Positions 4,546 to 5,088 of a stretch of DNA of 64,000 nt are shown here, piece after piece. The notes below the pieces were generated by a model. The model was given only the letters and a program-made list of their open reading frames with translations. It was not told the DNA's origin and did no database searches. The position numbers were made by a program, and so were the translations under genes. Origin of the DNA: Enterobacter phage vB_Ecl_id4496; sequence record PQ824230.1; one strand, written 5' to 3'. Numbering within the stretch: position 1 is the first letter of the stretch; each line of letters starts with the position of its first letter.

Positions 4546-4854
4546 TTATGTCATGGTTGTAGGTCATCCCGACGTTAAATAAATCAAAACCTCCAGTGAT
4601 ACGCTACTAAAGTGCGAACTTGAAAATAAACGGCAAGTGCATGCTACCCCGAGGCGATGGCTAATCGGGAGTACGCCTCAAGGCCTATACATCCATCGGT
4701 GTATATCTTATCCTCGAGAAATCGGACCCGGACCCTTTAAGCTAACGGTGTGCAACAGATAAGAGTTTAAACGTACCCCTTGAGGGCTTGCGGGAACTGA
4801 CAACATGTACGTGTAGGATGTTCCCATGTATTTCTCCAAAATGGAAGACTAAAA
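4546..4854 (+). ncRNA. ORF-free, GC-rich ~300-nt structured region (candidate ncRNA or long structured leader)
   Basis: No ORF of 60 aa or more on any frame. GC content is clearly above the neighbours. Several GC-rich hairpins such as GAGGCG...CGCCTC. Confidence 0.4.
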
Positions 4855-5034
4855 ATGGCTAAACAAACTAAAGCAAAAACTGCAGTAAAAGAAGTTGTTG
4901 GTACCTCTAAACGCGCTGGCTACAAGCGTGGGTCTAACTCTCGTATTAATCCATTGGCTGACCAGCTAGCATCTCGCGCTCGCAAAGTTATTGCTCATGA
5001 TGCTGCATTTGGTAATCCACGTAAGAAAGCATAA
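4855..5034 (+). CDS. small basic (Lys/Arg-rich) 59-aa protein
   Basis: ATG at 4855 to TAA at 5034 (MAKQTKAKTAVKEVVGTSKRAGYKRGSNSRINPLADQLASRARKVIAHDAAFGNPRKKA). One codon below the track length cutoff. A perfect terminator follows immediately. Confidence 0.45.
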   Translation: MAKQTKAKTAVKEVVGTSKRAGYKRGSNSRINPLADQLASRARKVIAHDAAFGNPRKKA

Positions 5035-5045
5035 AGCATAAGTTC

Positions 5046-5072
5046 GGGACTCCTTCGGGAGTCCCTTTTTTT
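5046..5072 (+). terminator. rho-independent terminator GGGACTCC-TTCG-GGAGTCCC plus T7
   Basis: Perfect 8-bp GC stem, UUCG tetraloop and seven T residues. Confidence 0.85.
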
Positions 5073-5088
5073 GCATCCAGAGGTTCAT

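Follow-up and report, generated by a model that had tools for sequence, protein, structure and literature searches.

A previously undescribed, mobile structured RNA family between rIII and gene 30.9 of T4-like phages

Gene content of the rIII–30.9 locus

The window, which is the whole stretch of 64,000 nt analyzed from Enterobacter phage vB_Ecl_id4496 (PQ824230.1), contains directly downstream of rIII a region devoid of larger open reading frames (ORFs). This locus raises the question of whether the region holds a functional RNA, a small protein gene, or the remains of T4-type genes. The region is 100% identical to its counterpart in vB_Ecl_YOG and 99.5% identical to that of vB_EclM_AS6 (Karamvirus, Tevenvirinae), and the window is assigned to a Karamvirus-type T4-like phage. 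On the + strand, cd (2897-3463) is followed by 31.1, gene 31 (ending at 4165), rIII, the spacer, a 59-aa ORF, a terminator, and further small genes. The rIII gene (4291-4545, + strand; PHROG 1457, E = 7.6e-41) codes for the lysis inhibition accessory protein and is annotated as such in AS6, CC31, and PG7. The spacer that follows it extends over 309 nt on the same strand (4546-4854).

Two compositional features ascribed to this region by the original prediction, the missing ORFs and the elevated GC content, were confirmed. No ORF of at least 60 aa is present in 4546-5070, which makes this the second-longest such stretch in the 64-kb window after the tRNA cluster. The largest ORFs within the spacer comprise 41, 43, and 27 aa, and the reading frame of none of them is kept across relatives. 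The GC content of the spacer is 45.3%, compared to 40.1% in the window, and ranks in the top 6% of all 309-nt windows. This excess is concentrated in positions 4627-4769, which have a GC content of 49.7% (top 2.2% of 143-nt windows).

The 59-aa ORF (4855-5034, + strand) is indeed highly basic, with 15 Lys/Arg in 59 residues, and is a homologue of gene 30.9 (PHROG 1427, E = 5.2e-29). Homologues of 30.9 were found by tblastn in 1004 phage records, and 30.9 is annotated at the equivalent position in CC31, PG7, and T6. A Shine-Dalgarno-like GGAAGA is located upstream at 4843-4848. By both homology and position directly downstream of rIII, we assign this ORF to the ordinary T4 gene 30.9. Searches of Pfam, NCBIfam, and PDB with the 30.9 protein gave no match, and the notion of a ribosomal-protein-like protein was dropped on these grounds. 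The expression of rIII and 30.9 was the subject of a 2003 paper by Driukas and Nivinskas in Biologija, cited in PMC9409239.

Transcription through 30.9 would end at a predicted Rho-independent terminator (5046-5072, + strand), which consists of a G+C-rich hairpin with a directly adjoining U tract. Its 8-bp stem (GGGACTCC-TTCG-GGAGTCCC, 5046-5065) contains six G-C pairs and is capped by a UUCG loop, and the run of seven T (5066-5072) is the longest among the 25 strongest terminator candidates of the window. The hairpin had been called the strongest terminator of the window. It is among the strongest, but ranked third of 26 by folding energy in a window-wide scan (−16.5 kcal/mol compared to −16.8 kcal/mol for the best two). 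We interpret the small ORF as the normal 30.9 gene and the hairpin behind it as the end of the 30.9 transcription unit.

The same layout occurs in T4, where rIII is followed by an ORF-free spacer of 244 nt and then by 30.9. Therefore, the premise that T4 30.x ORFs had been replaced at this position was wrong. T4 keeps all of its 30.x genes in addition to the spacer, and this also speaks against a degraded 30.x remnant, an outcome that had been named beforehand as contradicting a functional RNA.

Several short modules of the spacer are shared among phages. Module A (4550-4600, + strand; alignments A1 and A7) consists of a stem formed by GUC (4550-4552) and GAC (4571-4573), which encloses 18 nt and is followed by the conserved sequence CGTTAAATA…AAAAC. 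In 12 of 12 lineages the stem retains all three pairs, two of which have changed on both sides. Module A is also present in T4, CC31, and JS10. Module G (GTGATACGCTACTAAAGTGCGAACTTGAA; 4596-4625, + strand) is a block of ~30 nt that was recognized by eye in alignments A1 and A4 and, according to the same kind of reading, is common to T4-like phages and 7-11-like Grimontviridae. Its T4 version (TTCACTGCC…AGCTAA) bears what we take to be a likeness to the type I-F CRISPR repeat. Models of CRISPR direct repeats (CRISPR-DR) had zero matches in this locus and in three other RNA-bearing loci. A hairpin of GGGAAC (4792-4797) and GUUCCC (4820-4825) was read from the + strand sequence just 5' of the ribosome-binding site of 30.9. 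In alignment A1, PG7 and JD18 have GGGAGC/GCUCCC at the equivalent site, which is a compensatory change. Modules A, G, and C occur in differing orders between lineages. Hence, the structured stretch of about 300 nt that had been proposed does contain an RNA, but only the 143 nt at 4627-4769 form it, while short modules that also occur in T4 make up the mosaic remainder of the spacer.

Fold of the 143-nt RNA

The structured RNA at 4627-4769 (+ strand), which lies within the 3' untranslated region of rIII, was delineated by covariation and a consensus fold. Folding of 16 diverse copies (alignment A2) with RNAalifold yielded 37 pairs, 18 of which show compensatory changes. In an alignment of 23 distinct sequences fitted to a covariance model (A3), 98.8% of the cells were paired and 20 of 37 pairs had changes on both sides, a number reached by none of 500 shuffles. 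Slid controls had 24-41% of their cells paired. A MAFFT alignment that contained the flanks and included the closing stem P0 (A5) gave 95.5% paired cells and both-side changes in 24 of 42 pairs (0 of 500 shuffles; slid controls 25-45%), although the number of independent substitutions is modest because most copies are 85-98% identical. The original prediction of a structured RNA in the spacer was thus borne out, and this non-coding RNA is conserved. A covariance model of the RNA (R1) detected exactly one copy in the window and one per RNA-bearing locus, whereas 72 decoy loci gave no hit.

The RNA is closed by P0 (4627-4631/4765-4769), which opens into a four-way junction of P0, P1, P3, and P4 with zero linker bases. 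The first arm comprises P1 (4632-4634/4683-4685) and P2 (4645-4652/4665-4673), which are separated by a large conserved internal loop. The second arm is P3 (4686-4692/4699-4705). The third arm, P4 (4706-4712/4758-4764), ends in a three-way junction with P5 (4714-4717/4722-4725) and P6 (4726-4730/4746-4751). P5 carries a GNRA-type GAAA loop in the window, and the alignments show GAAA, GUAA or similar caps among the copies. The P6 loop and its 3' flank are almost invariant. Next to P1, the bases AAG lie opposite A-N-G in the alignments, an arrangement that could form tandem sheared G·A pairs. Further sequences read from the alignments as invariant or nearly so are GCAU, AUCC, ACCCGGA, GCUAA, and GGUGUGCAACAGAU. 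Strong purifying selection acts on paired as well as unpaired bases across at least eight genera.

The loops of P2 and P3 can pair with each other in a 6-bp kissing loop, formed in the window by CGAUGG (4655-4660) and CCAUCG (4693-4698). A perfect 6-bp Watson-Crick duplex is possible in all 23 distinct sequences, compared to a mean of 3.1 bp and a maximum of 3.9 bp in shuffled-loop controls. Four versions of this interaction exist (CGAUGG/CCAUCG, UGAUGG/CCAUCA, CUAUGG/CCAUAG, and CAAUGA/UCAUUG), which covary at three of the six positions. The kissing loop replaced an inner stem proposed by RNAalifold within L2 (A2 columns 30-32 with 37-39), as it explains those bases better. We discarded a pseudoknot of GAGGCG in L2 with CGCCUC on the 3' side of the internal loop, as visual inspection showed it to be inconsistent across the sequences. 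In P0, the five inner pairs are maintained through AU/GC/UA/CG swaps, while the flanks are otherwise unrelated between lineages.

Thermodynamic stability was uninformative. The z-scores of the minimum free energy (MFE) were −0.55 and +0.24 for the two strands of the 309-nt spacer and −0.59 for the 143-nt RNA alone, none of which exceeds what is obtained with shuffled sequence. That the multiple hairpins postulated for this region are real is concluded from the covariation instead.

We also considered that the element might not be an RNA, and that a small protein gene (the 41-aa ORF at 4637-4762), a decayed 30.x remnant or a DNA site such as an origin or a recombination site is conserved here. 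Inverted repeats could equally form in DNA, and GenBank records annotate small coding sequences over the element, including a hypothetical one in AS6 that corresponds to the 41-aa ORF. However, this ORF has no PHROG match, and no reading frame is conserved across the copies, which differ in their indels and stops and in the frame and length of their stop-free runs. Compensatory substitutions occur in the stems and in the loop-loop duplex. The paired cells contain 53 G·U but only four A·C combinations, an asymmetry that is expected for an RNA encoded by one strand and not for duplex DNA, and which identifies the gene strand, i.e., that of rIII and 30.9, as the one encoding the RNA. The complete set of 30.x genes beside the spacer of T4 leaves little room for a decayed remnant. 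A protein-coding or DNA-level nature of the element thus appears very improbable and, judging from the aligned copies, is effectively excluded. The "hypothetical proteins" annotated over the RNA in several GenBank records are spurious.

The RNA did not match any described family. None of the 4227 models of Rfam 15 had a match over 4627-4769 at E values up to 10, either within 2.5 kb of sequence or with 166 nt alone, and three other RNA-bearing loci had no Rfam match at E values up to 5. An ARAGORN scan of the window identified no tRNA or tmRNA at the locus, and with relaxed thresholds the only call was spurious, lying on the opposite strand and containing a 60-nt "intron". The sequences GUGCAACAGA, CGAUGGCC, CAAGGCC, and GAACCCGG presumably occur in the same cyclic order in the specificity domain of E. 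coli RNase P RNA. This resemblance was taken as chance, as the Rfam RNase P models had no match at E values up to 10 and blastn against E. coli found no similarity. A multi-copy repeat of the MITE or ERIC-like type was also dismissed, given that each genome has one copy and that P0 covaries while its sequence is not conserved. Searches of the literature by gene names, topic, and sequence strings found no description of the RNA. We conclude that 4627-4769 represents a previously undescribed, mobile, covariation-supported structured RNA family. The absence of the RNA from T4 and T6 may explain why it had not been described earlier although T4-type phages belong to the most thoroughly studied viruses.

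Distribution and mobility of the RNA

The RNA occurs in about 400 phage records (402 by blastn with the spacer alone). Its core of ~135 nt (4631-4765) is ~95% identical across many genera, whereas the adjoining 30.9 protein is only ~60% identical across the same set. The core was found in Karamvirus, Jiaodavirus, Dhakavirus, and Tequatrovirus, and in phages of Citrobacter, Kosakonia, Serratia, and Yersinia. The family is nevertheless narrow, comprising T4-like phages of Enterobacterales and one other phage. Neither E. coli genomes, searched by blastn, nor plasmids contained sequences similar to the RNA, and a 19-mer scan of species-representative bacterial genomes and metagenome contigs retrieved T4-like contigs only. 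A scan of viral contigs with the 14-mer GGTGTGCAACAGAT returned, beyond the known set, only chance matches (L023, L141, and L152 among them) and was discarded.

Sequence identities of the RNA disagree with those of the flanking genes. Between the window and JD18, the RNA is 97.9% identical, compared to 72.5% for rIII and 72.6% for 30.9. The corresponding values for JS10 are 90.9% for the RNA, 75.2% for rIII, and 68.1% for 30.9. Conversely, PG7 shares 98.8% of rIII and 100% of 30.9 with the window, but its RNA is 93% identical and resides at a different point of the spacer.

Altogether, the RNA has three different positions within the T4-like spacer. In COW86c and PG7 it directly follows the rIII stop codon, whereas in the window and JD18 it lies ~80 nt further downstream, 3' of modules A and G. 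Module A is accordingly located 5' of the RNA in the window and JD18, and 3' of it in JS10, PG7, and COW86c. The third position is seen in LZ9, where the RNA forms a clean insertion at position 125/128 of the T4 spacer, with flanking spacer sequences that are 96-100% identical between T4 and LZ9. The LZ9 copy has an 8-bp P0 (CUUAUAGC/GCUAUAAG). The core is absent from T4 and CC31 according to both alignment and the covariance model, run with filters off, and T6, whose spacer is T4-sized, is likewise scored as lacking the RNA. The original view that core T4 genes do not explain the RNA is in line with its absence from T4 by the covariance model.

Outside the T4-like phages, a copy ~82% identical to that of the window was found in PKM.Lu.22.1, a 76-kb phage of the 7-11-like Grimontviridae. 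Here, the RNA is flanked by an SSB-like and an ECF-sigma gene, and 30.9 is not adjacent to it. Its sibling PKM.Hi.22.6, which is 98% identical over the locus, and phage 7-11 possess the same spacer without the RNA. The difference is a clean insertion of ~150 nt that is bounded by its own P0 (AAACAGC/GCUGUUU) and is positioned upstream of an already present terminator. The flanking genes of both siblings are alike, and no protein gene was added at the insertion site.

The discordant identities and the clean insertions substantiate the suspected horizontal acquisition. By sequence comparison, the RNA is an optional cassette of ~150 nt that has been exchanged among T4-like phages independently of the flanking genes and, on one occasion, became inserted in an unrelated 7-11-like phage. 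It thus behaves as a portable cassette without a protein. The idea that the RNA and the small protein make up one module was not upheld, as 30.9 occurs without the RNA in T4, T6, and CC31 and the RNA occurs without 30.9 in PKM.Lu.22.1.

Such a pattern could also be produced by a selfish or neutral passenger that is spread by recombination in co-infections, and whose structure serves its own persistence or mobility. The presence/absence polymorphism between near-identical phages, the three insertion points in the T4-like spacer and the further, separate insertion in an unrelated phage, the discordance with the flanking genes, and the lack of the RNA in T4 and T6 would all fit this explanation. 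We nevertheless consider it quite improbable, because each genome has only one copy, no transposase, endonuclease or reverse transcriptase accompanies the RNA, and purifying selection on paired and unpaired bases is strong across at least eight genera.

The arrangement of the T4-like loci raises the alternative that the RNA is a cis-acting leader of 30.9, either a riboswitch or a protein-binding operator whose regulator could be the basic 30.9 protein itself. Each copy in T4-like phages is located upstream of 30.9 on the same strand, and the hairpin at 4792-4825 lies just 5' of the 30.9 ribosome-binding site. In addition, the multi-way junction, the kissing and GNRA loops, and the invariant unpaired bases give the RNA the complexity of an aptamer, as expected for the sensing domain of a riboswitch. 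However, the RNA and the 30.9 start codon are separated by 85-190 nt that vary between lineages in sequence and module order, so that no conserved expression platform is apparent. The gene is maintained without the RNA in T4, T6, and CC31, and in PKM.Lu.22.1 the RNA precedes a pre-existing terminator and then a sigma-factor gene. The riboswitch-like leader put forward in the original prediction is therefore unlikely.

Comparison with known RNAs and possible roles

The RNA is always in sense orientation to the surrounding genes. No promoter-like site was found in 4546-4854, and the RNA has neither a promoter nor a terminator of its own that is conserved across lineages. As no terminator separates it from rIII and no conserved promoter precedes it, the RNA is probably co-transcribed with rIII, and it would form part of a read-through mRNA initiated upstream of either gene 31 or rIII.

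Structured RNAs of 120-140 nt that derive from longer transcripts are also represented in T4-type phages by T4 rnaC and rnaD (species 1 and 2 RNAs), to which, to our knowledge, no function has yet been assigned. Unlike the RNA described here, these are encoded in the tRNA cluster and not after rIII, and the RNA itself is absent from T4. In a search of the T4 tRNA/rnaC/rnaD region with the covariance model and filters off, the best hit had 7.1 bits (E = 0.8) and was ~2.5 kb away from the rnaC/rnaD coordinates.

The mosaic spacer resembles regions that harbor PeSL (promoter-early stem-loop) cassettes, which are short intergenic modules shuffled by recombination in plastic regions of T4-type genomes (PMC2839356, PMC4122927). 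A PeSL consists of a sigma-70-type promoter and a simple stem-loop (PMC4122927). In contrast, our RNA is a multi-helix fold of 143 nt with 5' flanks that vary between lineages, and it is not a PeSL because it lacks a promoter consensus.

In the lysine riboswitch (L-box), a closing helix leads into a multi-way junction, a 6-bp L2-L3 kissing loop joins neighboring arms, and the kissing arm contains a structured internal loop. The closing helix, the multi-way junction, the 6-bp kissing loop, and the internal loop of the kissing arm seem to have counterparts in the RNA of the window, a likeness that is architectural only and does not make the RNA a member of this class. The two differ in that the lysine riboswitch has a five-way junction in place of the four-way and three-way junctions seen here, and the phage RNA has no Rfam match and no conserved expression platform.

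Similarities also exist to small phage ribozymes (hammerhead, twister, and HDV-like), which share with the RNA its compactness, a variable closing stem, an invariant core, tertiary loop contacts, and an occurrence as optional intergenic cassettes. The RNA might accordingly be a new self-cleaving ribozyme or a processing signal for an RNase, so that the polycistronic mRNA would be severed between rIII and 30.9. Its compact fold with invariant junction bases and a stabilizing loop-loop contact would suit such a role, as would its nature as a small mobile cassette in intergenic regions of phages, which is typical of many small ribozymes. However, the ribozyme models of Rfam had no match at E values up to 10, no feature points to a cleavage site, and at 143 nt the RNA is larger than most small ribozymes. 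A role in cleavage or processing is in our view improbable.

Weighing these alternatives, we consider 4627-4769 to be a new, independently folding RNA, and we slightly favor its interpretation as a stable, self-contained accessory RNA over that as a leader of 30.9. Because its two ends pair and its fold is independent of the neighboring sequences, the RNA likely acts as a self-contained unit. The fold is as complex as is usual for ribozymes and the aptamers of riboswitches. Features such as its paired ends, kissing loop, GNRA loop, and invariant unpaired bases are typically seen in RNAs with a specific binding partner or a catalytic activity. As an accessory RNA, it may most readily bind a factor, either of the host or of the phage, or a small ligand, and it could serve as a decoy, a sponge or a cofactor. 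The laboratory phages T4 and T6 manage without the RNA, and this counts against the favored interpretation.

More tentatively, the RNA might constitute a new functional class, either a ribozyme or an RNA that binds a host protein or a small molecule with high affinity, but we regard this extended interpretation as doubtful. A binder of this kind could function as an RNA-only decoy, or as a sponge, directed against a host defense system or RNase. In either case the RNA would need no phage protein dedicated to it, which would allow it to hop as a cassette of ~150 nt between unrelated phages of Enterobacterales. An anti-defense role of the RNA is possible. Phage decoy RNAs such as pseudo-ToxI and RNA anti-CRISPRs may share with the RNA only this mode of action, in which an RNA carried by the phage is portable and needs no phage protein of its own. 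They mimic a known host RNA repeat, whereas for the RNA described here neither E. coli and plasmid sequences nor CRISPR-repeat models gave a match.

The function of the RNA is directly testable, since nature provides isogenic pairs of phages that differ in its presence. These pairs are T4 and LZ9-type phages, and PKM.Hi.22.6 and PKM.Lu.22.1, with PG7-type and window-type phages listed as a further pair. The phages that carry the RNA include many candidates for phage therapy against Klebsiella, Enterobacter, E. coli, Shigella, and Yersinia.

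Sequence blocks around the structured RNA

A block of about 30 nt, module G, lies upstream of the 143-nt structured RNA (window 4627-4769, plus strand) at window 4596-4625 and has the sequence GGTGATT(C/T)GCTACC(T)TAAGTGC(A/G)GCT(A/T)GAA. It recurs near-verbatim in both T4-like phages and 7-11-like Grimontviridae (comparison loci L159, about 885-915, and L027, about 1347-1378). Its position is 3' of rIII in the former, whereas in the latter it lies between the SSB-like and sigma genes, and in the Grimontviridae phage PKM.Lu.22.1 it is found downstream of the RNA. No DNA similarity between the two phage groups was seen at this locus beyond module G and the RNA insert. 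The T4 version resembles a type I-F CRISPR repeat; comparison of module G with the Rfam CRISPR-DR models gave no match.

In the partly overlapping module A (window 4550-4600), a 3-bp stem closes off 18 nt and is succeeded by CGTTAAATA…AAAAC. All 12 lineages compared, T4 among them, retain this module, which precedes the RNA in some and follows it in others. The stem is GUC/GAC in the window and GAC/GUC, GUG/CAC or GUU/AAC in other lineages.

At L005 about 2160-2250 (minus strand), L140 about 485-575 and L006 about 1100-1190, T4, LZ9 and JS10 have in common a block of about 90 nt, 96-100% identical, on the immediate 5' side of the point where the RNA is inserted. This block, which is absent from the window, contains a hairpin, TAATGATT-TGCG-AATCATTA, and the motif TTTTACGGTGTACC, and may represent a further conserved RNA element.

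Structures near 30.9 and sub-threshold Rfam matches

Immediately 5' of the ribosome-binding site of 30.9, the 59-aa basic ORF, the window contains a GGGAAC/GUUCCC hairpin (4792-4825). Its counterpart in PG7 and JD18 has a longer loop and the stem GGGAGC/GCUCCC, a compensatory change relative to the window. In T4 and LZ9, an Rfam match to the Rhizobiales sRNA Atu_C8 covers the 3'-terminal part of 30.9 together with adjoining downstream sequence (L005 1826-1909, minus strand; L140 982-1065); at 31 bits it was below the gathering score of 50, and it is probably due to the terminator hairpin.

Annotated small CDSs and neighboring features

GenBank annotates a 41-aa “hypothetical protein” inside the RNA in phage AS6 (WZK93311.1; L001 1938-2063, corresponding to window 4637-4762), and several Klebsiella phage records contain comparable small CDSs at this position. 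Because no reading frame is conserved over the RNA and there was no PHROG match, these annotations probably do not represent real genes.

The intergenic region separating gene 31 from rIII contains a perfect match to the T4 late-promoter motif, TATAAATA (window 4166-4173). Farther 3', the stem GGTAGACG/CGTCTACC precedes TTTTATT (window 4225-4267), an arrangement that looks like a terminator. Elsewhere in the window, a cluster at 62315-63995 comprises 12 tRNA genes. Two of these are called as tRNA-Met, and one of the two (63821-63915) is, at 95 nt, unusually long.
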